Below are positions 3,168 to 60,573 of a DNA stretch of 64,000 nucleotides, piece by piece. The stretch comes from a virus. Every line of letters begins with the position of its first letter. Within the stretch, counting starts at the first letter, position 1. The notes under the pieces were generated by a model. The model worked only from the letters and a program-made list of their open reading frames with translations, searched no databases and had not been told where the DNA came from. The stretch is from positions 116,826 through 180,825 of IMG/VR virus record IMGVR_UViG_3300009008_000005, one strand, 5' to 3'. The position numbers were made by a program, and so were the translations under genes.

Positions 3168-3279
3168 AGGAACCTCCATACACACGGATTATCGCACCCG
3201 CCTAGGCCACGATGCAAGCGCAGGGGTATTTCAACGAAATACGGGCATAAGAAAGGTGGACGATCAGAATGGAGGTGAC

Positions 3280-23715: not shown

Positions 23716-26700
23716 TTACACCACCAGTGTCACCCGGATTCTATTTGCCGGGTAGTAGGGTGTGATGTCCACTTCGATAAGAATCGTATCCGGGTTATCC
23801 GGATCGATAACGATGTTGACTACGGTCGCACGCTGGACGATGACTCCGCTGAAGCTGCTCACCAAGGTGTTGATAATGGTAGACAGCAGCGCCATGAAGT
23901 TCGGCGTGATGTTGTAGCGACCAGCCAGACGGTTGATGTTCGTCCGGATGATCTTGGTCATGTAGTCCAGTACACGGGTAATGGACAGCTCCCTCGTCTG
24001 GAGGGATGATACGTCCGTGGTCAGCTGGTGACGTACGAACACGGGACCGTCTGCGCTCTCCTGGATGAGCCACATGACCCCGCCACCTGCGGCTAGATCC
24101 ATGTTGGCTTCGGAGAACTGGTCCCAGGACCCGGAACAGGCTTCGATCCCGTACAGCACGGTCCCCGTGAAGGACTGGTGCGGCGGGAGTGCAGATGCCT
24201 TACCTGCGAGGGCTGCGCATGCGTAGTATCCGTGAAGGACTACGTCCGTGCCTGAGTCGTTGTAAGTAACCTGGTCAGGCTGCACGAAGGCCATGCGGCG
24301 TGTTCCGTAGCGGCTGGCCATGTCAGAGATGGCCTCTGCTGCGTATTGCCGTCCAGTGGTCGTAGTGTAGGACACTGATGCCTGGCGGACGAAGAGAGTA
24401 ACCGTCTCGCCGTCGACATCCCACGTCGGGGAGTCCCCGTACCCAGGGAGGTCCTCGGAGAAGAAGGCATCATCGTTACCGTTCGTCGCAGGTCCCGACC
24501 CAGCGGAGAAGCCAGTGGTGCGGCACTTGAGGACGTTACCAGCAGCGATCTCCGATACGGAGTAGCGGAACCCGTCTCCGCTCCTCTCGATGTACAGGCC
24601 ATCCGAGATGGCGCAAATACCGAAGGTCGGCACAGGGTTACCCAGAGCATCGGTCTTCCCGATAAGGGCGGCTGCGATGTTGAACCCTGTCGCCGGGTCG
24701 ATAGCCAGGTCGAAAGTAAAGGTCGGGAGATTTACGACTGCGTCTACGCCCGTGTCCGTACCGACAGACGTAGGCTTCCTCTCCGTAGGCTGTGTCTGGC
24801 AGACGAAGCCGAGCCTCTCACTCCGGCCTGTCTCAGGATCTTCCATCGTCTCGATGTGGGTCTTGAGCGCATCATGCACCGACCGATCAGCGGTCAGAGG
24901 TGCGATGGAGTACACATCGTTCGCCTCAAGGAGACCGAAGGCGTTGTTGTACGCAGAGGTAGTTCCCTGCGGCTGTGCAGTAGAGACCGCATCGACCGAC
25001 AGCACCTTCACCTGCGTGTTGGGCGCATTGTTCATCGCAAGGTACGCACCCACAGTCAGGGGATTCCTGCTACTGATGGTACCTAGAGTAGTCGTGATGT
25101 CGTCGGTCCCACCCAGGATAGTTACGCCACTACCCAGGGCAGACAGGTCACTACGGAGTGCGTCATATCCGCAGACCATAGAGAAGCTTGGGTCGGATAC
25201 CCACATCCCACCGTTGTCTCGACCAATACCAGACTTGATCGTGAACCTCTCCAGAGTAGACGAAAGTGTCAGCTCCGGAAGCGGACGACTGGCGATGAGG
25301 CCTGTAGACGTAGAGGTGAGGTTCTCGGCCTGGTAGTACCAGTATGCGATGGGCGTACCCATGGTACCGGCCTGTGCGTCCAGCTTCGTGATGGCGTTGG
25401 TGAGAGTACCCGTTCCCAGAACTCCTGCGGGGAATGCGTAGTTCTCGAAGGCCGTCACAACTCCCTGCTCCACGCCGCCATTGTAGAGTGTGTCCCCAAC
25501 GGCTGTGGTGATGGGATCTCCGAAGTAGCAACCCTCATAGTCGAGATCAGAGGAGCTGTAGGACCCGACCATGAGCAGCTGGAGACCGTCGATCTCACGA
25601 AGCTCTATGGAGCAGTCCGAGCCTGCTGTCGTCGTAGCCAGGAGGGCATCATTCAGATCGAACCTGATGCAAGGAATCGCCGCACCAGCAGCAGGTAGCG
25701 CTACGATCGTGTAGCTGCAACTTGTGCAGTCCGTAATGTTTGCCGTGATGTCGATGTTAGTCGCACCACCAACGGCTCCGATTGCGGAGAGGGCGTTCCA
25801 ATTCGTCCCGCCGACTGTGTCGTAGACCCAGCACCGGAACTCACCGCCAGCGGTGACATCCATCGCCACGAAGTCCTTGGTCAGGTCGGTGAGTGTCGTG
25901 TTCGCACCAGCAGAAACGGCTGCGGTTCCGCTGCAGTACTCAACGCCGACCGTGGCACTCACAGGAGCCCAGGTGCTGGCGATGTTCACGCCTACCTGCG
26001 CATTGATGGATGCCGTAATATCCGCTGGCAAAGTGGCAGTGGGATCAATCGTTACGATCGTCTCTGCACCACCATTGAGCCGGACACCGAACTGCTTATC
26101 TTGCAGATTCAGGACCTGCTGTGCGGTCATCATGGCCTGTCCCAGCACCCTTGGGTAGGCGGTATTGGTACCACCCAGGGTGTAGGTGTTGGTCATCGCC
26201 CCGCCGTAGTTATACGGGTCAGCTCCGAAGCTCAGGTTGTAAATCTGGCTATCGTGAACATCCGAGATGGTGTTCGTACCCGTGGCCCCGGAGTTCAGGT
26301 AACTCGCACCTGTACTGGAGGAAGCTCCTGGGTCCAGGTAGTTTGCCCAAGTCGTCTGGGCCTGGATGTTCGTGTCGAAGTCGTCGAGAGTATCCAGTCC
26401 TGTAGCAGCTGCAGCGTCCAGGATACGGTAGTGGCACTTCATGGCTACTTCGGCACCCACCAGGACTGCGTCGTCCAGGTGCGGCCATGAGGTCCAGGTA
26501 TCGGTGATCAAGGTAACGATAGCTACCTTCACCGGACCAACGAGGTCGTCAACCAGCTCGTCCAGTGTGTCCAGGACACCAGCACCGAGGTTTGCGTTGA
26601 TGGTGATCACTGTACCGGCGTTTGTACCGTCCATGATGACCATGAACTCACCACCGCCGATAGTCGGCCACACAGTCGACCCTCCAGGAGGACAGGTGAT

Positions 26701-27852
26701 CGTATCATTGGTACCTGGTCCGCCTGGATCGTGCTGGATGGTAATGTCGTCCGCACCAAGATGCGCCTCGAACTCGATGTAGGCGCTGTTACCCAGGGCA
26801 CCCGGGAGGTACCCAATGTCGGACAGGTAGCTCGCACGCCAGTTCTGGAATCCGAAGGCCTCGAAGTGGTAGTAGTCATCTGCAGGTCCACCAGACAGCG
26901 GAATGTCAGCGAATGCGTGACGCCCGGTGTTGATGAACTTGTTCGTGGATGTTCCACCATCGGGGTTCCACGGGTAGAGGTAGTTGTTCTCCGGAACAGG
27001 ATCCACACTGGGCTCCCCGCCCGTGTTGGCCACGGAGCAGAGCACACCATTGGGTCCGCTGACCGTACCAGTAAAGTCGTAGGCATTGAACATGGGAGCG
27101 ATAAGCTCCGCCTTACCTACCTGGAGAGTCTCTGCAGACCAACCACCGCCAACGCCAATGTCGAACACTACCTCAACACGACCCGCACGGGTGGCGTTGA
27201 CGCAGGAGTCCTCGCTCAGGGCCACGAGAGACCCGTACTTGAGCAAGTACATGTCGATGTCATCTGCGTCGAACGTGAGGTAGCTCATCACGCCGTTCGG
27301 GTCGGGCAGATCCGTCCAGGCAGCAGACACGGTCCAGTTGTCGTAGGACCCTGCTCCGGAGTAGGTGATACCTTCATAGATATCAATACCCAGATCCGCA
27401 TGCGCCGAAGCGCCTGCAGGTAAGGTTACGACGATGGATACGCTGTCGCCCATCCCCACCGTACGAACCTCGATGTAGTTCGTTGCAGTCTTACTCCACA
27501 GGAGCTGGTCTGCAAACGACTCGTTCAAGCTCGTGATGATGGTATCGATGGGAAGGCTCCCGGGAGCGGTCCCGGGAAGCACAGCTTCCGTATCGTTTAC
27601 ACCGTTGGTCACCACATGGACATACAGTCCTGCTACGGGGAATGTTGTACCCGCTTCGTCTCCTTGGATCGACGCAGGGAGATTCATCACAGCGCTGGAG
27701 TTCAGCGCTCCGGAAGACCCAGTGGCCTCCAAAATCTCCTTGTGAGGACCAACAACACAAGCGTAAAAAGTAGGCCTGAAGATCGTAGGAGTGACATTCC
27801 GGATCTCCTGGATTACTTCGACTCCTGGCCTCGGGATTGAACCTGTCGACAT
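23716..27852 (-). CDS. tail sheath protein, unusually long (1378 aa)
   Basis: N-terminal RPGVEVIQE; C-terminal VRHQLTTD...RELSITRVLDY...ILIEVDITPYYPANRIRVTLVV sheath signature. Confidence 0.88.
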   Translation of the reverse strand: MSTGSIPRPGVEVIQEIRNVTPTIFRPTFYACVVGPHKEILEATGSSGALNSSAVMNLPASIQGDEAGTTFPVAGLYVHVVTNGVNDTEAVLPGTAPGSLPIDTIITSLNESFADQLLWSKTATNYIEVRTVGMGDSVSIVVTLPAGASAHADLGIDIYEGITYSGAGSYDNWTVSAAWTDLPDPNGVMSYLTFDADDIDMYLLKYGSLVALSEDSCVNATRAGRVEVVFDIGVGGGWSAETLQVGKAELIAPMFNAYDFTGTVSGPNGVLCSVANTGGEPSVDPVPENNYLYPWNPDGGTSTNKFINTGRHAFADIPLSGGPADDYYHFEAFGFQNWRASYLSDIGYLPGALGNSAYIEFEAHLGADDITIQHDPGGPGTNDTITCPPGGSTVWPTIGGGEFMVIMDGTNAGTVITINANLGAGVLDTLDELVDDLVGPVKVAIVTLITDTWTSWPHLDDAVLVGAEVAMKCHYRILDAAAATGLDTLDDFDTNIQAQTTWANYLDPGASSSTGASYLNSGATGTNTISDVHDSQIYNLSFGADPYNYGGAMTNTYTLGGTNTAYPRVLGQAMMTAQQVLNLQDKQFGVRLNGGAETIVTIDPTATLPADITASINAQVGVNIASTWAPVSATVGVEYCSGTAAVSAGANTTLTDLTKDFVAMDVTAGGEFRCWVYDTVGGTNWNALSAIGAVGGATNIDITANITDCTSCSYTIVALPAAGAAIPCIRFDLNDALLATTTAGSDCSIELREIDGLQLLMVGSYSSSDLDYEGCYFGDPITTAVGDTLYNGGVEQGVVTAFENYAFPAGVLGTGTLTNAITKLDAQAGTMGTPIAYWYYQAENLTSTSTGLIASRPLPELTLSSTLERFTIKSGIGRDNGGMWVSDPSFSMVCGYDALRSDLSALGSGVTILGGTDDITTTLGTISSRNPLTVGAYLAMNNAPNTQVKVLSVDAVSTAQPQGTTSAYNNAFGLLEANDVYSIAPLTADRSVHDALKTHIETMEDPETGRSERLGFVCQTQPTERKPTSVGTDTGVDAVVNLPTFTFDLAIDPATGFNIAAALIGKTDALGNPVPTFGICAISDGLYIERSGDGFRYSVSEIAAGNVLKCRTTGFSAGSGPATNGNDDAFFSEDLPGYGDSPTWDVDGETVTLFVRQASVSYTTTTGRQYAAEAISDMASRYGTRRMAFVQPDQVTYNDSGTDVVLHGYYACAALAGKASALPPHQSFTGTVLYGIEACSGSWDQFSEANMDLAAGGGVMWLIQESADGPVFVRHQLTTDVSSLQTRELSITRVLDYMTKIIRTNINRLAGRYNITPNFMALLSTIINTLVSSFSGVIVQRATVVNIVIDPDNPDTILIEVDITPYYPANRIRVTLVV

Positions 27853-52414: not shown

Positions 52415-53584
52415 CTATTTTGTCTTCACTGCATCTGACAATAACGACGGAGGGGGCGGAGAACACTTCGCTCCGACAGCTAGTAGGGACAAGTACGCCA
52501 TTAAAGCATTTCCCTTGACCAACGGTTCCATCGCTCCGACACCCCCCAATTTTAGTTGTGGTGCGTCGATGTTGCAAACTGACCGAGATTTTATGGACAG
52601 GGAAGAAGATGCCGCTAAGAGCAGTTGAGCCGCTTCTACAATCAGATTCCCCGCTTCGTCACCCTTGAGAGCGCCCAGGGCACCGAATTCTATGTTGAAG
52701 CCCTTAGTGAGGTGGGCATAGGCGTGTCTACCCTCCCAGTGGAGGCTACCAGTGATCTTCTGGAAGATGTTACCCAACGAGTCAATCTGGAATACGTAGG
52801 TGGCCCCTGTGTTTTCCGGGTCCACACAAATCGACAGCCGTGTGGTCTCCCTAGGCTTGTTCGTGATGTACTCTGTGGCGAGGTCCTTGGTGAAGGGCTT
52901 GTCCTTTAGGTTCCCGAACAACTCCTGCTGCTGTGCACCGAACTCCGGGTCACCCACACGCCCCGCACGCACGTTTACCGTAAGGAAATCATTCTCCACT
53001 AGGTCCTTGGTTCCCCAGTGGAGGCAGGCCGTCGTATCACCATCATCTGTCTTGATCTTCCCATGCTTCCAGACGATGTCCCCCAATAGGGACCTGCCCT
53101 CGTAGTTCTGGTAGAACTGCCTGATCAGGTTGTCCAAGGGGAAGTACATGGTTTGGGCTATAGGGGAGGCACCTACCTGTACTGTGCCTCCCTTCCGGAG
53201 GGTGACGAAAGCGCCCTTCCCATTGTACAGAGCGATGTCGCCAGGAGATAGGAGGGGCCGACCAGCTAAGTAGTCCTCTTCAGATTCCCCGTCCTTACCT
53301 GTGGACCCAGCCTTGGGTGGAGCTACCCATGAACCGATGAAAGGAGAAGTTCCGTCAGATGGGTAGAACAGATAACAGTCAGAACCCACCTCCGGGCAGA
53401 AGTCGATAGCCGTCCCGCTCTCCACGTTCAGATAGGCTGCTCCGCAGGCTAGCTCGGGTACTACCTGGGAATCTGTATCCGTGTGTACGTCTACAGTCCT
53501 GCGCCCGGGATGTACTTTCGTGACAGTACCTCGGACCATGCGGCCTGCACGACCCGAGGAAGCTCGCTTAGCCTGTCCAGACAT
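52415..53584 (-). CDS. baseplate spike/puncturing protein (gpV/gp5 OB-fold-like), 389 aa
   Basis: RGTVTKVHPGRRTVDV...PEVGSDCYL N-terminus; beta-helix-like C-terminal half; EPLVKGNAL. Confidence 0.6.
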   Translation of the reverse strand: MSGQAKRASSGRAGRMVRGTVTKVHPGRRTVDVHTDTDSQVVPELACGAAYLNVESGTAIDFCPEVGSDCYLFYPSDGTSPFIGSWVAPPKAGSTGKDGESEEDYLAGRPLLSPGDIALYNGKGAFVTLRKGGTVQVGASPIAQTMYFPLDNLIRQFYQNYEGRSLLGDIVWKHGKIKTDDGDTTACLHWGTKDLVENDFLTVNVRAGRVGDPEFGAQQQELFGNLKDKPFTKDLATEYITNKPRETTRLSICVDPENTGATYVFQIDSLGNIFQKITGSLHWEGRHAYAHLTKGFNIEFGALGALKGDEAGNLIVEAAQLLLAASSSLSIKSRSVCNIDAPQLKLGGVGAMEPLVKGNALMAYLSLLAVGAKCSPPPPSLLSDAVKTK

Positions 53585-56500
53585 TAGTACCCCTCGCCCA
53601 GAGGCTTCGTACCGAATTCCTTCCCGTATACCAGGGAGGGGATCGGGTGCATACCATGCAGATTCGAGGACTGCCGGATTGCCGCTGCGTCCTGGACTGT
53701 ATCACGGAGACGGGCGTAGACCATCTTAGCCAACCAGTCATCGTGGATGTCGAGAGGTAGTGTGGTGGTTCCCCGGAGGATAGGTTTGTACTTGACCGGC
53801 TTCGCACCCTTGGGCCTCTTTCCGTTCCACTCCTCCATCTGAGAGATCCTAGCTGTGTCCCCCTTGAGGAGGTTATCGTCTCCACCCGGATCCTGGACCC
53901 GGGCGGTGTTCGTGAGGGCCTTTACGATGACCTCCATGTGCCGCCTTTTGATTCCATAAGGATCATAGATCTTTCCCATCTCGTCAGTGAGGTACTTCTG
54001 CACCGTAGGGAGATTCGTGAGTTCCAGAAGCTCGTGAGGATTGATCAGCCCATGCGATATCTGCTGGCCCTTGGTCACCTTCGAGCCGACCTTGACATCC
54101 AGACCACGGTTCTGGGGTACGTAGTGCTGAGTATCTCCAACACCTACATCCCACCCACCAACGGGACTCTTCTTGATGGAGGTCACCTTCCCGGAGTCTC
54201 TGGCTAGGACTGCTGAGTTCGGGATGTTCTTGGGTAGCTGTACGATCTGGCGTAGACGACTCATTGCGTCCACGATTCCACCGCCCTTACCAGTGTGGAA
54301 AACCCGCATGGTCAGCTGAGCTGCACGCTCCCCCACGGCCTGAGTAGCATGGATACCCACGTTCGTTCCCATCGGAGCAGCATTCGCTCCTGCGTGAACC
54401 CCGTAGCACTTCTGACACACCCCGTTAGCTACACGGCACTTCAGGGGGCTACGTACCACGACGCCAGTAACCTTGGATGCCTTCAGCTTGGAAAGAGTGT
54501 CCGTGGTGATGAGCGTGTTCGATTTGATCGTCTGGCCCGACCGCAGCTTGATGGATACAGCAGTATACCTGTCGAGTAGGGAGTTGTTGGTGGTGGGGAG
54601 CATGATCCCCTTAGGGGTCTTGCAGTCCGGGGAGGAGATGATAATGTCCATCGTGGACTTACCGAGCTGTTTCGTGATTGCGCCCGGGTCCCTGACCTCC
54701 TGCGTCTTAGCGATGATACCTCGCCGAACACCAGGTGCAGACATCCAGTAGTCGGCCATGGATAGACCATCACCATAGCTACCTGTTACAGCCGGAGTAG
54801 CTGGGGAGCCTGTCGGATCCTGCACCAGCATACGAGCTAAAATGATCTGCTCGATCTGTGTCCAGGAGGGCTTCACGCCAGCCTGGGACATGATGTATAG
54901 CGCCGTGTCCTTCTTCTTGAGGATAGGCATAGCCTCCCGTTCCATGATGGCACTAGCATCCTCATAGAGCTTCAGCATAGCCTTGTGCTTTGCGTCCTTG
55001 GAGAGATTCTTGTTCTCCTGGATCTTACGGACCTTCGGCTCCACAGCGGCCAGGGCCTTGTTACGGATACCCTTCAGCGGCTCGAAGTCCGTTAGCTTGT
55101 AAGAGAACCCTACCTTGTGGACATGACCGAACCCCAGGTCCTTGAGTACCTGTGCGGTCTGGACGTATAGCTGGGGCTTCTCCGTGGCTATGTGCTGGAG
55201 CAGCTTGTTCACACCACCCTTGTTCAAGGACCAGTCTGCCTTGTTGGACAACAGTGCGGAGGCTTCCTTCGGGAGCTTCTGTTTCAGTAGCTCACGCCCA
55301 GCGGTAGTCCGAAGCTTGCCGATACCCACCTGCGTGTCCCAAGGGATCTTTCCGTTATCGGCGTCCTCGATCAAGTCATCAGACGAGGAGTATTTCGTTG
55401 AAATACTGTTCTTCTTCACCCTGGACAGGAGATACAGACCTACGAGGCTTTCCATCGTAGGGGTGTGGATAATGGCATCAGATGCAGGGTTGATTAGGTT
55501 ACGGCTGGGCATCAACCCATAAGCTTCCTTCACAGCTTCCTTGGATACAGGCACGAACAGAGCTACCTGGTCACCATCGAAGTCTGCGTTGAACCCCGAG
55601 GTAACCAAGGGATGAATGTGGATCTCCTTGTCACCCATGATCCGCACATTGAAGGCCATGATCCCGAACTTGTGGAGAACAGGATCCCGCTTCATCAGGA
55701 CAGGGCGCTCCTTCAGGACCTCCTTCATGGCTAGCTTCGCATGCTCCGACTTGGCAATGATGGACTCCCTTGCTTCCAATGGCCGCATCCCACCAAGGAC
55801 CATCTTCTGTTGGATGAAGGGACGGAACAGCTCCAAGGCTACGTCTTCAGGTAGGCCCACATCGTCTAGCTGCAGAGTCTGGTCGGGAACAATGATCCCA
55901 CGGGCCGTCATGTCCTGCTTCCTCTTGACGAGCTTCGTCATGAAGTAACCGGACTTGGGCTGTGGTCCTGCGATGATGTTGAGGATACCCTTCACCTGTG
56001 GTGAGGGTTCCTTCAATCCGGACAGGGCCCGCATGCCGTCATAGACTTCCTTCCGCAGGCGGGCTCTCTGGCTCTCGGGCATCTCTGGAGGAAGGTCCTT
56101 CAACTGCTGGTTACTCAATCCAAACTCTCTGTAGAGCTGATTGAGGTCTCCACGGCTAAGGTTCCCGTCATCTAAGACGGAGATCGGGCGTAGCTTAGGC
56201 GGAAGTACTAGCTGCTTATCGAGCATGTAGACCGTTGCGTCTACCTCCCCACGTACTAAGGCCCTAAGGTACTTAGCACGCTTGTTCAGCTTGTTGAGCT
56301 GGTCACCCTCTGTGTTGTTCAGCTCATCTACTGCGGCCTTCAACTCCTCCTTGGGGTTGATCTGTCCCAAGAGTTTCTTGATCGACTCTGGGCCCCTGAC
56401 TACAGGGTCTTCATCTGTGATCTTGCCTTCCTTGTTCAGGCCTACCTCACCAGTCAGGAGCTTTTCGTAGGTGGACTGGGTTATACCAAGGAGAGACTTG

Positions 56501-59500
56501 ATCGCTCGTTCGAAGACAGGGTTCGGGAAGGTCTCGGCTAGTGCGATGTGGCCGAAGTTCCTACCCCCAATACCACCTGTGACATCCTCATCGAACAATC
56601 CATTCTTCTCTGCCCGTAGATCCTTGGCCCTAAGCATACGACCCGGGTCCTTGATCTCTCCGTTCGAGATGTTGCTGATCTGCTTATCCGTGAATGGGAA
56701 GATAACAAGAGTATCATCCTCCCGCTCCACCCCAAGCCCCAAAGCCTCCAAGTACTTCACGAACTTGTCGAAGGCACTAGGTATCCTGGGTGGCGGTAAG
56801 GGCTGTCCCATCTGCACAGCCATCCAGATGTCATCTTGTGCAGAGTCCGCCTTGAAGGTCTGCATCTCTCGGAGGTTATGGATAGCCCCGTGGGCGAGCA
56901 TGCCGTAGATACCCAGCTCCCCCATGCGCTGTGCACCGTGCTTACCCCCACCACGGGGCTCTCCATCCAAAGTATACTCGTACCCCGGTCCCCAGGACCT
57001 GACTGCCATCTTCTTATCAGCCTGGTGCACCAGCTTCAGAATATACTGCTTACCTGTGAGGACCTGTCCCAGAGACTTCCCGGTCTGCGGGTCGAAGAGT
57101 TCCTCCGTCTCCGACAGCCCACGTTCCTTCAGCTTGTCCTGGACAACGGATAGGTAATCCCTCTCGTACTTGTAGGGTGCTACCCAGATCTTCTTTTTGT
57201 CCTCTCCACCCTTACCGGTGTTGACCACACGCCAGTGGCCCTTCACCTTCACGATCCGCTTGTTCCGATCCGACTCGAAGTTCCGGATGGCTACAGGGGA
57301 CTTCTCCTCTTCCGCAACATGAGAGATCGAAGTCTCCAGGACCTGCCCCACGTTCATACGACCGCCCACACCCTGAGGGTTGTGGATGATCTCGATGGCG
57401 TTCCCGTCCTTGTCCTGGGGCATCTCGTCATCTGGAAGGACTCCTGAGATGACACCCTTGTTGCCGTGGCGACCGGAGAGCTTGTCACCTGCCTTGGCAG
57501 GCTCCTCTGTTCGGATGTGTACGTGAACATCGTTCCCGATCTTGTTCACGCTAACGACCTTTCCTTCCACAGTGGAGTTCCAGGTTAGAGACTTGTCGGA
57601 ATACTCGCTGACCAGACTCTTGTGGACACCACGAAGGAGGGCTTTCTCTGGAGTCAGCTCCGCCTTCTTGGCTGTGGCCACCAGGATCTCCCCAGGTGAC
57701 ACGGTCTCTCCCACCTTCACCACACCCGTTGCGTCCAGCTTTTCCTCATTGGCAGGAGTCAGCTTCGCAGGGTAGAGCATCTTGTACTTCTTCCTGCTGT
57801 TGATGGACTCCTTCGGATCGATTGTGACAGAGGGCTTGTACATGTGAATGGAGGTCATCTTCTTAGCTGCGGTCTCAGAGATGAGGACCCCATCCTCGAA
57901 GGTCAGCCCCTTGTACGGGAGGTAGGCAATGCGGAGGTTCTTACCGAGCGCAAGCACTCCGTCCTTTGTATAGTTCGTATCAGCAACAGCCGCCCCACGG
58001 GTTACCTTGTCCCCCTTGGATACAGTGGCCTCCGACTGGAGGAACATGCTGACACCATTCAGTGGGAAGTTGTTGTACAGGTGGACGGGGTGATTCTTCC
58101 CCGTCTTGTCCTTGATCACGATTTTGTCTTTGGTGACGGAAGACACAGTACCTGACACGGGAGCTACGTGCCCTGCGATTGCGGCCCAGCGCTTCTCTAG
58201 CGTAGGAGCATTATCTCCAGTCTGAGACTGGACCTGCACAAGAGGGGCTTCACGATGCTTCAGCGGGATGGCCTGCTCCATGTGGCGAGCTGCCATCTCG
58301 ATACGTGTTCCGTCGTCATTGGACAAGAAGGGTACTAGGTTCGTAGACGAAGAGAAAAGCATGCTCGGGGAGGGGAGGATGTAGTCCACGTCCTTCGCAT
58401 CGACCGTAGCCTTCAGAGATTCCGGGGTCTGGGCATGGACGGCATTGGCTACAGGGGTGAAGTTCCCGTCCTTGTACTTGTACTGGTCTGGGAAGGCCAC
58501 TACTGACTTTGACAACTTCGCAGGGGACACCATGTCCAGCTTCTTGGACTTGGTGTTGAACATGGGTACCTTTACTTCCTGTCCGTCCTTATGGACACCC
58601 CACGCTAGGCGGAGGGTAATACCTGAGCGCTCTCCCTCAGGGGTATGCACAGGGTCTAACACACCAAGGTGAGAGGAGTGGACTGCCTTTGCATCCTCTG
58701 TCACACCGAAGGGACCACTGATACCACCAACCCCTTCACCAACCAGTGTCGTCTCGGTGAACCTAGATACCCAGTCCAGCGGATTGATTTGTTGGGTCTG
58801 GTTGGAGATCGATGACGACCGGAAGAAGGCATGGATGGGCTTGGTGAACACGTCGGAAGCAATGATGTCCCTTACACTGTCTCTACGGTCTAGACGGTTC
58901 AGGACCTTTCTACGAATCGCCGTCTTGGACCTATCGAGCCTGTCTGCTGCCAGGTCATCTACGCCCAGGAGGGACTTGAATTGGATAGCGTCACGGAAGT
59001 CGGGCTCTACCTCTCCCCGGTGAATACCCAGCAGCTTCTTGGATGCGACTAGTAGAGCCTCGTTGTTCACTGTGGCGAAGGGCTTTCCTAGGGTAAGTGC
59101 GGTGGTGTCCTCACGGATCTCGGTTTGAGCGAACCTCTCACGTATAGCCTTGGTAACACCCTCTTCCGTCTCCGGGACCGTGTCGCCCAATGAAGTAAGG
59201 AGCTTCCTCCCGTCCTTCATAGGCTTGGATACCTTCTTTGCGTTCTCCAACATCCCAGCGCCCCAGGCCTTCTGGATGTCTTCGTCCTCTGCGCCCATCA
59301 TCTTGAGTAGAGAGTATAGAGGTACCCTTGCGGACTCATACTTCAAGAGGAAAGTTTTCTTCTTAGGGTCGAGGATCAGATGGAAGCCCCTGCGGTTGAA
59401 GCCCTCCGCCAGGTTGAATTGTGTCTCTGGGTTACCCGTAGCTGCGATTCGGGAGTAGGCTCCGGACTTCAAGCGCCACAGATGTGAAACCTGTCGCTCC

Positions 59501-59820
59501 GAACCACCGACGATGAAACTGTACCTTCGAGTAAGACCTGGTACAGAGGCTAGTCGGATGCCCTTGACCTTGTCGAGAACCTTACCTGTGGCCTTGTCCT
59601 TGAGTACCACATCTCCCTTCACAGCCACGGACCAGGTTCGACCAGTGTTCTTCGCCGTAGTTTGGCTTGGAATATCGTCTACTGCCTTGGGATCTTCTGT
59701 AGTCAGATTCGAGACTTCCAGGGTGTGCTTCTTACCTTCGAAGGGAAAGAAGGACCCAATTTTGTGGGCGACCTTCTTCTGCAGATCGTCCATAAGGGAC
59801 TCAGGATTTAGAACCAGCAT
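53584..59820 (-). CDS. rpoBC: single-chain DNA-directed RNA polymerase, fused beta and beta-prime (2078 aa)
   Basis: beta: EMAARHMEQA, KLSGRHGNKG, NPQGVGGRMNVGQ, YILKL, GAQRMGE; beta-prime: RDPVLH, FNADFDGDQ, GERAAQLTMRVFH; one uninterrupted frame; GGAGG SD. Confidence 0.95.
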   Translation of the reverse strand: MLVLNPESLMDDLQKKVAHKIGSFFPFEGKKHTLEVSNLTTEDPKAVDDIPSQTTAKNTGRTWSVAVKGDVVLKDKATGKVLDKVKGIRLASVPGLTRRYSFIVGGSERQVSHLWRLKSGAYSRIAATGNPETQFNLAEGFNRRGFHLILDPKKKTFLLKYESARVPLYSLLKMMGAEDEDIQKAWGAGMLENAKKVSKPMKDGRKLLTSLGDTVPETEEGVTKAIRERFAQTEIREDTTALTLGKPFATVNNEALLVASKKLLGIHRGEVEPDFRDAIQFKSLLGVDDLAADRLDRSKTAIRRKVLNRLDRRDSVRDIIASDVFTKPIHAFFRSSSISNQTQQINPLDWVSRFTETTLVGEGVGGISGPFGVTEDAKAVHSSHLGVLDPVHTPEGERSGITLRLAWGVHKDGQEVKVPMFNTKSKKLDMVSPAKLSKSVVAFPDQYKYKDGNFTPVANAVHAQTPESLKATVDAKDVDYILPSPSMLFSSSTNLVPFLSNDDGTRIEMAARHMEQAIPLKHREAPLVQVQSQTGDNAPTLEKRWAAIAGHVAPVSGTVSSVTKDKIVIKDKTGKNHPVHLYNNFPLNGVSMFLQSEATVSKGDKVTRGAAVADTNYTKDGVLALGKNLRIAYLPYKGLTFEDGVLISETAAKKMTSIHMYKPSVTIDPKESINSRKKYKMLYPAKLTPANEEKLDATGVVKVGETVSPGEILVATAKKAELTPEKALLRGVHKSLVSEYSDKSLTWNSTVEGKVVSVNKIGNDVHVHIRTEEPAKAGDKLSGRHGNKGVISGVLPDDEMPQDKDGNAIEIIHNPQGVGGRMNVGQVLETSISHVAEEEKSPVAIRNFESDRNKRIVKVKGHWRVVNTGKGGEDKKKIWVAPYKYERDYLSVVQDKLKERGLSETEELFDPQTGKSLGQVLTGKQYILKLVHQADKKMAVRSWGPGYEYTLDGEPRGGGKHGAQRMGELGIYGMLAHGAIHNLREMQTFKADSAQDDIWMAVQMGQPLPPPRIPSAFDKFVKYLEALGLGVEREDDTLVIFPFTDKQISNISNGEIKDPGRMLRAKDLRAEKNGLFDEDVTGGIGGRNFGHIALAETFPNPVFERAIKSLLGITQSTYEKLLTGEVGLNKEGKITDEDPVVRGPESIKKLLGQINPKEELKAAVDELNNTEGDQLNKLNKRAKYLRALVRGEVDATVYMLDKQLVLPPKLRPISVLDDGNLSRGDLNQLYREFGLSNQQLKDLPPEMPESQRARLRKEVYDGMRALSGLKEPSPQVKGILNIIAGPQPKSGYFMTKLVKRKQDMTARGIIVPDQTLQLDDVGLPEDVALELFRPFIQQKMVLGGMRPLEARESIIAKSEHAKLAMKEVLKERPVLMKRDPVLHKFGIMAFNVRIMGDKEIHIHPLVTSGFNADFDGDQVALFVPVSKEAVKEAYGLMPSRNLINPASDAIIHTPTMESLVGLYLLSRVKKNSISTKYSSSDDLIEDADNGKIPWDTQVGIGKLRTTAGRELLKQKLPKEASALLSNKADWSLNKGGVNKLLQHIATEKPQLYVQTAQVLKDLGFGHVHKVGFSYKLTDFEPLKGIRNKALAAVEPKVRKIQENKNLSKDAKHKAMLKLYEDASAIMEREAMPILKKKDTALYIMSQAGVKPSWTQIEQIILARMLVQDPTGSPATPAVTGSYGDGLSMADYWMSAPGVRRGIIAKTQEVRDPGAITKQLGKSTMDIIISSPDCKTPKGIMLPTTNNSLLDRYTAVSIKLRSGQTIKSNTLITTDTLSKLKASKVTGVVVRSPLKCRVANGVCQKCYGVHAGANAAPMGTNVGIHATQAVGERAAQLTMRVFHTGKGGGIVDAMSRLRQIVQLPKNIPNSAVLARDSGKVTSIKKSPVGGWDVGVGDTQHYVPQNRGLDVKVGSKVTKGQQISHGLINPHELLELTNLPTVQKYLTDEMGKIYDPYGIKRRHMEVIVKALTNTARVQDPGGDDNLLKGDTARISQMEEWNGKRPKGAKPVKYKPILRGTTTLPLDIHDDWLAKMVYARLRDTVQDAAAIRQSSNLHGMHPIPSLVYGKEFGTKPLGEGY

Positions 59821-59891
59821 GGTTCCTCCCATTGAGAAGACTCTTGTTTATGATAGGAGACCCTCTCTCCGAGCGTCAACTCTTTAGCTGG

Positions 59892-59897
59892 TATAAG
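59892..59897 (+). promoter_or_regulatory. TATAAG putative phage promoter box
   Basis: CTGGTATAAGAG heading two small + strand ORFs, divergent from the RNAP gene. Confidence 0.5.
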
Positions 59898-59947
59898 AGC
59901 CTTGAAGCCTAGTCCCACATACCATAGGAGGTAAGAGTTGATCTAGG

Positions 59948-60097
59948 ATGCTGATTCTTGTAATGGATATCTTCAACGAGGACAGAAGGGATTCTCCGTT
60001 TGACATGTTCACGGATGATCTCTTTGCAGACCTGCCACCTGTGGATGATAATCAGGAGCAGGAAAAAGAGGACGAGAAGAACGAAGAAGAGAAATGA
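59948..60097 (+). CDS. small very acidic protein (49 aa)
   Basis: MLILVMDIFNEDRRDSPFDMFTDDLFADLPPVDDNQEQEKEDEKNEEEK; GGAGGT upstream. Confidence 0.5.
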   Translation: MLILVMDIFNEDRRDSPFDMFTDDLFADLPPVDDNQEQEKEDEKNEEEK

Positions 60098-60189
60098 GAA
60101 TTGCCGCCCTGTACTTTTTGGCGTCCCTAGCTATGCATGCGGGTAGCACCCTGCTAGCTATGGCGCAGAAGGCTGTCAGACAGAAGTGA
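60094..60189 (+). CDS. small hydrophobic peptide (31 aa)
   Basis: ATGA-coupled; MRIAALYFLASLAMHAGSTLLAMAQKAVRQK. Confidence 0.35.
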   Translation: MRIAALYFLASLAMHAGSTLLAMAQKAVRQK

Positions 60190-60238: not shown

Positions 60239-60266
60239 AAGGGGGCCCCGCCTGGCCCCCTTCTTT
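60239..60266. terminator. hairpin terminator between convergent genes
   Basis: AAGGGGGCC-ccgcct-GGCCCCCTT-CTTT. Confidence 0.7.
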
Positions 60267-60573
60267 ACCTATGATGGAACTCTACACCAGGTCTTTTGGA
60301 GAATTTATCTACGAATTTCGCATTCATGTCGAAGAACATGCGACCATTCTTACGCAGTGCCCTCAAGGCTTGCCTACGAGAATTTCTGCCGAGTCTACCT
60401 CTTAGGAGATGCCGCTTGTGGTCCGGAGTCTTCTTCCATAGATCAGCTCCACGTAGATCCATATCCAAGCTGACGAGGGGAAGTCTAAGGCGCTTCGCAA
60501 GGGTAGCGGCATAAGTAGACTTTCCGGCACCTGAGTGACCTGTAACTACTATGTGCCTGAAATCCCTATCCAT
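60265..60573 (-). CDS. short P-loop kinase-like protein (102 aa), possibly truncated
   Basis: IVVTGHSGAGKSTYAATLAKRLRLPLVSLD; GAGG SD. Confidence 0.6.
   Translation of the reverse strand: MDRDFRHIVVTGHSGAGKSTYAATLAKRLRLPLVSLDMDLRGADLWKKTPDHKRHLLRGRLGRNSRRQALRALRKNGRMFFDMNAKFVDKFSKRPGVEFHHR

Follow-up and report, generated by a model that had tools for sequence, protein, structure and literature searches.

A phage-encoded RNA polymerase of bacterial type with its β and β′ subunits in a single chain

Introduction

Bacterial-type RNA polymerases (RNAPs) are thought to need a dimer of the α subunit as the platform on which their two large subunits, β and β′, are assembled. In the RpoBC fusions of bacteria such as Helicobacter and Wolbachia, the C-terminus of β is joined to the N-terminus of β′ in one frame, within a cellular setting that comprises α, ω and a ribosomal-protein operon. 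Here we describe a phage gene in which the same two subunits are fused, located in a 64,000-nucleotide stretch of viral DNA (positions 116,826 to 180,825 of IMG/VR virus record IMGVR_UViG_3300009008_000005). This stretch, hereafter called the window, is the last part of a 180,825-bp record that is rated 99% complete.

Phage RNAPs related to β and β′ have been described in several forms. The enzymes of the phiKZ and AR9 type have two barrels and lack α and ω; they consist of 4-5 polypeptides, come in two paralogous sets of which one is packaged in the virion, and have no sigma-70-family factor (PMC7598289, PMC7824862). The crAss-like gp66, which is packaged in the virion, and YonO carry both barrels on a single polypeptide whose likeness to cellular enzymes is confined to the catalytic motifs. 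Uncultured mReC phages have bacterial-like β and β′ with the NADFDGD motif, which branch apart from cellular RNAPs and are encoded among virion genes (PMC7481178). Finally, Salmonella phage Arash and Vibrio phages D69, D148 and D181, myoviruses with genomes of ~180 kb as in the present case, possess RNAPs in two pieces (gp206 and gp216 in Arash), the first of which is annotated in Arash as 'subunit beta' only.

Results

The minus-strand gene at 53584-59820 (table 1) encodes a complete, selectively maintained RNAP core of the bacterial two-barrel type, in which β is fused head-to-tail to β′. Its single open frame spans 53584..59832, with 2082 codons from the first ATG; the second ATG at 59820 is the likely true start, giving 2078 aa, because it is preceded by a GGAGG Shine-Dalgarno sequence and the family-consensus N-terminus aligns from there. 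Along the full length of the chain, the β domains Rpb2_3, Rpb2_6 and Rpb2_7 of Pfam (aa 348-1005) are followed by the β′ domains Rpb1_1, Rpb1_2 and Rpb1_5 (aa 1188-1982), and phmmer comparison with solved bacterial subunits gives E values of 4e-81 for β and 2e-105 for β′. The β part ends in ...ALGLGVEREDD (E. coli ...SLGINIELEDE) at residue ~1040, window position ~56712, and the β′ part begins without any linker at residue ~1041 as TLVIFPFTDKQ... / TLVIFPFTDKQISNISNGEIKDPG, the counterpart of the N-terminal stretch of E. coli β′. A preliminary description of the window, made from the sequence alone, had proposed a single frame of 2078 aa and had located the join between 56700 and 56755; frame, join and catalytic motifs all lie where it placed them. 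The fused RNAP is the sole RNAP gene, one chain at one locus, of this ~181-kb genome of an aquatic myovirus.

The fusion is widespread. A search of 5.8 billion proteins retrieved full-length homologues from more than 120 clusters with 40-56% identity, most of 2043-2117 aa, on contigs of up to ~190 kb that include Tara and marine metagenome-assembled genome (MAG) records. In 32 aligned homologues the junction region has the identical join and no indels, and among 17 homologues at 41-57% identity there is little or no variation in the catalytic residues and in the second zinc site's cysteines. In 44 of 80 IMG/VR loci the frame runs uninterrupted for 1950-2200 codons, and in 14 more it is longer and has inserts, so that 58 of the 80 carry the fused junction. 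A 301-aa probe centred on the junction matches 562 clusters (50% identity level) at E<=1e-30, and nearly all of the best 150 of these span the junction in one stretch. The single-chain RNAP is the hallmark of a very large phage clade, uncultured and mostly aquatic, with genomes of ~150-220 kb, and the design that prevails in it. Megablast of window positions 40-64 kb against 50,697 phage records produced no match.

A separate observation concerns insertions. Many RNAP homologues extend to 2400-3600 aa and contain intein, LAGLIDADG or Hom_end Pfam domains (P0006, P0008, P0009, P0047, P0063, P0083 and others); long or inserted RNAP genes of this kind also occur at loci L110, L112, L160, L166 and L168, and a homing endonuclease sits within the RNAP region of Vibrio phages D148 and D181. 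The RNAP gene is a preferred target of selfish elements.

With respect to bacteria, the best of 598 matches in 185,579 prokaryotic species genomes (one for each species) reach 25-30% identity, come from unrelated phyla and are ordinary neighbouring rpoB-rpoC pairs. No close copy of the RNAP was found among these genomes, and therefore nothing points to a prophage or a host. We then constructed a maximum likelihood tree (LG+G4, 2022 columns) from 17 phage proteins of the fused type, the concatenated pieces of Arash and of D69, and 23 bacterial sequences, three of them from Patescibacteria, that represent more than 10 phyla. A branch of length about 1.55 with SH-aLRT support of 100% separates all phages from the bacteria; the fused group is monophyletic, and its sister clade is the equally monophyletic pair of Arash and D69. 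Nesting within a host rpoBC clade, which the preliminary description had named as an outcome that would refute it, is thus contradicted and, to judge from these comparisons, the fused RNAP was not captured recently from a host.

The same results bear on the possibility that the fusion is an artefact of assembly or sequencing, or else a decaying copy of host-derived rpoBC. We found no point in its support. The identical junction recurs in hundreds of independent contigs (the 32 homologues, 58 IMG/VR loci and 562 clusters mentioned above), which also answers the earlier worry about a read error; the 6.2-kb frame is intact with invariant catalytic residues, identity to any bacterium does not exceed 30%, and the clade stands apart in the tree. 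We consider this explanation so improbable that it can be set aside.

The anatomy of the protein was defined by aligning a profile of the 32 homologues to E. coli β, of which it covers residues 53-232, 423-932 and 1048-1340, and to E. coli β′, of which it covers residues 29-63, 143-945 and 1129-1346. We take the gaps to be the lineage-specific inserts SI1 and SI2 of β and SI3 of β′. With 2078 aa, the fused RNAP falls about 13% short of compact bacterial cores (Bacillus, 1179+1203 aa) and about 24% short of the E. coli core (1342+1407 aa), and its shortness is mostly due to the lack of these inserts. Hence the adjective 'streamlined' used in the preliminary description is apt insofar as SI1, SI2, SI3 and a zinc ribbon are lacking, but less so in that the SI inserts are missing in many bacteria too. 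The only universal bacterial element that is lost is the N-terminal zinc ribbon of β′ (four Cys; ~64-100 in E. coli), in which the E. coli segment ending in ...RERMGHIEL is replaced by ...GLFDEDVTGGIGGRNFGHIAL; the loss is common to the fused RNAP, the 32 family members, Arash and D69. Conversely, cysteines C1737, C1799, C1806 and C1809 of the second zinc site are nearly invariant in 17 homologues, and the protein keeps the lid, the clamp helices, the bridge helix, the trigger loop (without SI3) and the flap-tip helix of β (...LTPEKALLRGVHKSL vs ...LTPEEKLLRAIFGEKA in E. coli).

The equivalent of rifampicin-binding cluster I shows the changes Q513N, F514Q, D516Q, H526R, R529E and S531T (E. coli numbering). 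Of the six rifampicin contact residues reportedly named by Campbell and coworkers in 2001, five are substituted in the fused RNAP. Because the pocket is so heavily substituted, we predict from established knowledge of rifampicin contacts that the enzyme is rifampicin-insensitive.

The window contains no gene for α, ω or sigma, as previously described. The absence of α and ω extends to the whole genome, in which Pfam models of α (PF01000, PF01193) and ω (PF01192) detected nothing whereas 14 of 14 control genomes were positive, and to five complete relatives (178-193 kb), in which they gave sub-threshold noise only. The picture of a system devoid of sigma holds for the window but not for the genome: a search with sigma-70 region 2 found a 282-aa gene outside the window (G000:C1:41646-42491), whose product is matched by Pfam over regions 2 and 3 and by RpoS/FliA-type models of NCBIfam over regions 2-4 (E 1e-12). 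This sigma gene, for which no paralogue was found in the genome, is present as one copy in each of the five complete relatives and has 31% identity (E 3e-26) with gp10 of Arash. Since the sigma gene is conserved and both the clamp helices and the flap-tip helix are retained, the fused RNAP is probably sigma-dependent rather than sigma-free. In another IMG/VR genome, a relative of L137, the sigma orthologue (G005:C1:168251-168973) has an in-frame TGA that could be a sequencing error, the mark of a pseudogene or a case of recoding.

These gene contents must be weighed against a hybrid enzyme, in which the fused chain would need host α2, and perhaps ω, for folding and assembly and would not be self-sufficient. 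Similarity with solved bacterial β and β′ (E values of the order of 1e-81 and 1e-105) is high in the regions contacting α, and bacterial RpoBC fusions keep α, with the fused rpoBC of a Candidatus Paceibacterota genome (see Discussion) as an example seen in our analysis. However, an enzyme delivered by the virion would require host α on arrival, and the RNAPs of phiKZ and AR9 function without α or ω (PMC7598289, PMC7824862). Moreover, the hosts of the clade must differ widely, so that a conserved interface with α would be hard to maintain. On balance, we regard the hybrid as unlikely.

TATAAG promoters had been proposed for the window. The bare hexamer is not over-represented (24+17 copies vs ~27 per strand expected) but is concentrated 5′ of genes (15 upstream regions vs 2.1 expected), and the motif is real in the form GGnATAAGA, for which 40 sites with one mismatch at most contrast with 9-17 in shuffled sequences. 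The sites typically lie 25-32 nt before an ATG with GGAGG in between, often right after a terminator-like hairpin, and nearly all are found among small genes at 48-135 kb of the genome; none was found 5′ of the RNAP gene on its own strand. The -10 element of sigma-70 promoters ends in T. Because G stands at the position of this last T (-7), the sequence of GGnATAAGA argues that it is not a host housekeeping promoter and is likely poor for host sigma-70. Five sites have a palindrome, GTATTTC-N3-GAAATAC, 0-4 nt upstream (genome positions 60951, 66472, 82422, 113918 and 120069, the last being window position 3244), where a -35 element or an operator would be expected; it resembles a regulator's binding site associated with this class of promoter.

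Evidence relevant to the virion comes from Arash, whose particles have been analyzed by mass spectrometry (PMC10585845). The larger RNAP piece, gp206 (β plus the N-terminal part of β′), gave 128 unique peptides and 3516 spectra, the most of any protein, and gp216 (the C-terminal part of β′) gave 40 and 1210, respectively. The SNF2 helicase gp217 (38 unique peptides, 1148 spectra), sigma gp10 (24 and 467) and the portal gp204 (32 and 877) were also detected, with 1333 spectra for the major capsid protein gp226. Orthologues of the Arash RNAP, sigma and SNF2 helicase are all present in our genome. Its RNAP gene is embedded in a morphogenesis module, with the gene order portal, RNAP, spike and a same-strand block that also holds the tail sheath, the major capsid protein, TerL and the SNF2 helicase; the gene order and the embedding recur in relatives, including the metagenomic loci L005, L007 and L008. 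By analogy with Arash, the fused RNAP is probably carried in the virus particle.

A different course of events would be T7-like: host sigma-70 RNAP would transcribe the RNAP gene early, and the fused RNAP with the phage sigma would take over middle and late genes without ever being packaged. In its favour, 18 nt separate the RNAP start from an upstream sigma-70-like promoter that matches at 10 of 12 positions (TTGACG-18-TATCAT, the best such match in 12 kb) and recurs in L005, the closest relative; the genome has a single RNAP set, where phiKZ phages have separate virion and non-virion sets; and the Arash virion list may include contaminating cytoplasmic enzymes. Yet sigma-70-like matches in the region are at chance level (5 vs 6.0 expected) and this promoter is not conserved in L007 and L008; throughout the clade, moreover, the RNAP gene is flanked by portal and spike within the morphogenesis block, and the spectra of Arash gp206 outnumber those of the major capsid protein. 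We find the T7-like course rather doubtful.

Among the neighbouring genes, the one that follows the RNAP begins within its stop codon, in the TAATG arrangement previously noted. The same 1-nt overlap is found in 13 of 35 related loci, with gaps of 0-9 nt in most of the others, and the gene directly after the RNAP is a spike homologue in 28 of 35 IMG/VR loci. PHROGs, Pfam and NCBIfam returned nothing for this gene, a flanking 665-aa gene or the portal. An AF2 model of the protein built with 31 homologues has a pLDDT of 80.9 (a 5-sequence model with pLDDT 36.8 was discarded), and its top 20+ Foldseek matches are all central spikes (E 1e-4 to 7e-3, probability ~1.0), namely those of the Algoriphagus extracellular contractile injection system (eCIS), PhiTE, R2 pyocin, VgrG1, phi92, P2 gpV, Mu, P1 and PVC/AFP; TM-scores are low, as expected for the monomer model of an intertwined trimer. 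One homologue also matches PF04717 (E 0.0085). According to the model, the gene product is the central spike, with an OB-like barrel at its N-terminus and a beta-helical spike fold after it, which agrees with its earlier description as a baseplate gene. Four relatives have an AHxH near the C-terminus, likely the metal-binding apex of gpV-type spikes; this motif is deleted here, in the region of the C-terminal ~30 residues. Programmed read-through from RNAP to spike was considered and rejected, for the two genes share a frame in ~9/23 or more relatives, near the 1/3 expected by chance, and are out of frame here.

Further features are listed in table 1. The 102-aa ORF between portal and RNAP resembles in sequence the N-terminal portion of a small kinase or NTPase, and the SNF2 helicase may be a partner of the RNAP in the manner of RapA. 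The place of the two tiny ORFs is likewise taken by tiny ORFs on the opposite strand in L005, L007 and L008; that the acidic 49-aa peptide might be a DNA mimic or an inhibitor of host RNAP is speculation. Rfam had no match in the window, which contains no tRNAs, and nothing meaningful was found in a search for repeats around the RNAP gene. At 23716-27852 (minus strand), an unusually long protein of 1378 aa matches tail-sheath families with its last ~220 residues and has a large N-terminal extension.

Table 1. Coordinates of the RNAP gene, its parts and surrounding features in the window
Feature	Position	Strand	Remarks
Fused β/β′ RNAP gene	53584..59820	-	2078 aa; in-frame upstream ATG 59832 gives 2082 aa; stop 53584-53586
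β-like module	56713..59820	-	aa 5-1040 of P0001
β′-like module	53587..56712	-	aa 1041-2082; second zinc-site cysteines kept
GRHGNKG motif, β double-psi barrel	57454..57474	-	aa 787-793; R, N, K, G invariant in 17 homologues
NADFDGD Mg-binding catalytic motif, β′	55570..55590	-	aa 1415-1421; ADFDGD invariant in family
Zinc-ribbon deletion site	56557..56580	-	...LFDEDVTGGIGGRNFGH...; lost in all family members, Arash, D69
Rifampicin-binding cluster I equivalent	58738..58827	-	strongly diverged
Sigma-70-like promoter TTGACG-18-TATCAT	59850..59879	-	10/12 match, 18 nt upstream of RNAP start
GGnATAAGA-type element GGTATAAGA	59890..59898	+	faces away from RNAP; equivalent in L005, L007, L008
Two tiny divergent ORFs	59948..60189	+	49 aa very acidic, overlapping 31 aa hydrophobic; GC hairpin at ~60243-60264
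TAATG stop/start overlap	53582..53586	-	last A of RNAP TAA is first A of spike ATG, 1 nt
Central (membrane-piercing) baseplate spike gene, gpV/gp5/VgrG type	52415..53584	-	389 aa, P0122
102-aa ORF between portal and RNAP	60265..60573	-	Walker A P-loop GHSGAGKST, weak AAA_33; not at this place in L005, L007, L008
Portal gene, 672 aa	60581..62599	-	29% identity, E 5e-89, to Arash gp204; place kept in L005, L007, L008
SNF2-family helicase, 619 aa	44397..46256	-	orthologue of Arash gp217

Of the records labelled as phage, several proved to be bacterial rplL-rpoB-rpoC DNA and were not used as phage RNAPs ('Acinetobacter phage MD-2021a' and contigs of Staphylococcus, Listeria, Enterococcus and Salmonella). 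Phage-collection records H4-H7, H9-H11, H16-H19 and L092 are contaminated or mislabelled in this way with bacterial rpo DNA.

Discussion

Taken together, the evidence makes it probable, in our opinion, that the fused RNAP is a single-chain core operating without α and ω, with a phage sigma as its partner, which is packaged in the virion together with the SNF2 helicase and starts rifampicin-insensitive transcription at GGnATAAGA. The covalent link between β and β′ would stand in for the scaffold that the α dimer provides in assembly, and the core would therefore work without α or ω. It would pair with the phage's own sigma-70-family factor via the clamp helices and the flap-tip helix. Polymerase, sigma and SNF2 helicase would be packaged in the virion and ejected with the DNA, upon which the enzyme would begin rifampicin-insensitive transcription at phage promoters of the GGnATAAGA type; being a single chain, it would spare its subunits the need of finding each other after ejection. 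A stricter version we advance only tentatively, at somewhat less than even chances: that the self-sufficient core and a single phage sigma constitute the rifampicin-insensitive holoenzyme, loaded into the virion near portal and spike and ejected with sigma and the SNF2 helicase. If true, this two-protein system would be the simplest known transcription system of the 'multisubunit type', and α and ω would be dispensable once β and β′ are tethered.

Several points speak against such a proposal. The phage sigma could redirect host RNAP instead, as the sigmas of T4 and SPO1 do; the missing α and ω genes may be compatible with recruitment of host α and ω, and RpoBC fusions coexist with α in bacteria. 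Chance accounts for about a third of the 40 GGnATAAGA matches, and the TTGACG-18-TATCAT promoter, directly upstream of the RNAP gene, fits early expression by host RNAP. The tree was built with a simple LG+G4 model, joins long branches and includes neither an archaeal or eukaryotic outgroup nor mReC sequences. The RNAP of Arash is merely ~30% identical to the fused RNAP, and the list of Arash virion proteins comprises 116 entries with ribonucleotide reductases among them (PMC10585845), so that abundant proteins of the cytoplasm may have been present in the preparation.

A widespread natural single-chain core without α or ω genes offers a direct test, with one gene plus sigma, of the requirement for α2. 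It is also a possible tool as a compact, rifampicin-insensitive polymerase programmable by sigma, and its junction is a marker for a large phage clade (562 clusters at 50% identity).

In comparison with known systems, the genome shares with the phiKZ and AR9 type the lack of α and ω genes, but the fused RNAP has neither split chains nor two sets, consisting of one chain accompanied by a sigma-70-family gene. The non-virion RNAP of AR9 is also far more divergent, as its chain 7s00_C matches with E 1e-19 vs 1e-81 for bacterial β. Both barrels on a single polypeptide are a trait in common with gp66 and YonO; unlike these, the fused RNAP is recognisably β plus β′ throughout. The mode of joining is that of bacterial RpoBC fusions, from which the phage form differs by its setting. 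One such fusion appeared in our searches, in Candidatus Paceibacterota MAG DATJQA010000074.1 (L035:172-7017), with 2281 aa, a short linker and the zinc ribbon retained. Since it groups with other Patescibacteria in the tree, it is independent of the phage fusion.

The enzymes of mReC phages are alike in their bacterial character, the NADFDGD motif and the location among virion genes, and the fused RNAP likewise branches apart from cellular homologues, as judged against 23 bacteria with identity of 30% at most. They differ in having separate β (~1000-1560 aa) and β′ (~900-1390 aa) among the entries of Supplementary Data 2, and at least some of their contigs carry two RNAP sets (PMC7481178), as opposed to one set and one chain here. 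As a side observation, the cultured Rhizobium phage RHph_Y65 of the Kleczkowskaviridae (L093, 8749-12132) encodes a separate β′ of 1127 aa with 25% identity to the β′ half; the two-gene enzymes of mReC type may have cultured representatives in the Kleczkowskaviridae infecting Rhizobium. Moraphage (PMC12619734) was considered as kin and discarded, being of a different lineage without RNAP.

Phage-encoded RNAPs of bacterial type are already known, but their fully fused form has, as far as the searchable literature shows, not been described before. We found no description of it in that literature, including PMC7481178, PMC7598289, PMC7824862 and PMC13282480; the text of the first speaks of fusion only for crAssphage, and reviews on jumbo-phage RNAPs (PMC7598289, PMC7824862), as well as a review of 2026, do not mention a fused enzyme of bacterial type.

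Closest of all are Arash and Vibrio phages D69, D148 and D181, the only cultured kin of the clade, whose partly split RNAP has so far gone unrecognised as a fusion. Arash gp206 and its D69 counterpart have the same junction of β with β′ and the same loss of the zinc ribbon, and Arash shares with our genome the synteny of portal and RNAP along with the orthologues of sigma and SNF2 helicase. In Arash and D69, a break past the catalytic barrel (at about residue 1505 of the fused RNAP) divides the chain into a piece of 1525 aa with β and the N-terminal part of β′ and a piece of ~606 aa with the C-terminal part of β′; other genes or a homing endonuclease separate the pieces in Arash and the Vibrio phages, whereas the chain is unbroken here. 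Because junction and zinc-ribbon loss are common to both groups, the fusion of β with β′ predates the split between the fused group and Arash/D69. The fused, the partly split (Arash) and the two-gene (mReC) forms constitute a natural series with which to ask whether phage RNAPs are ancient or derived.

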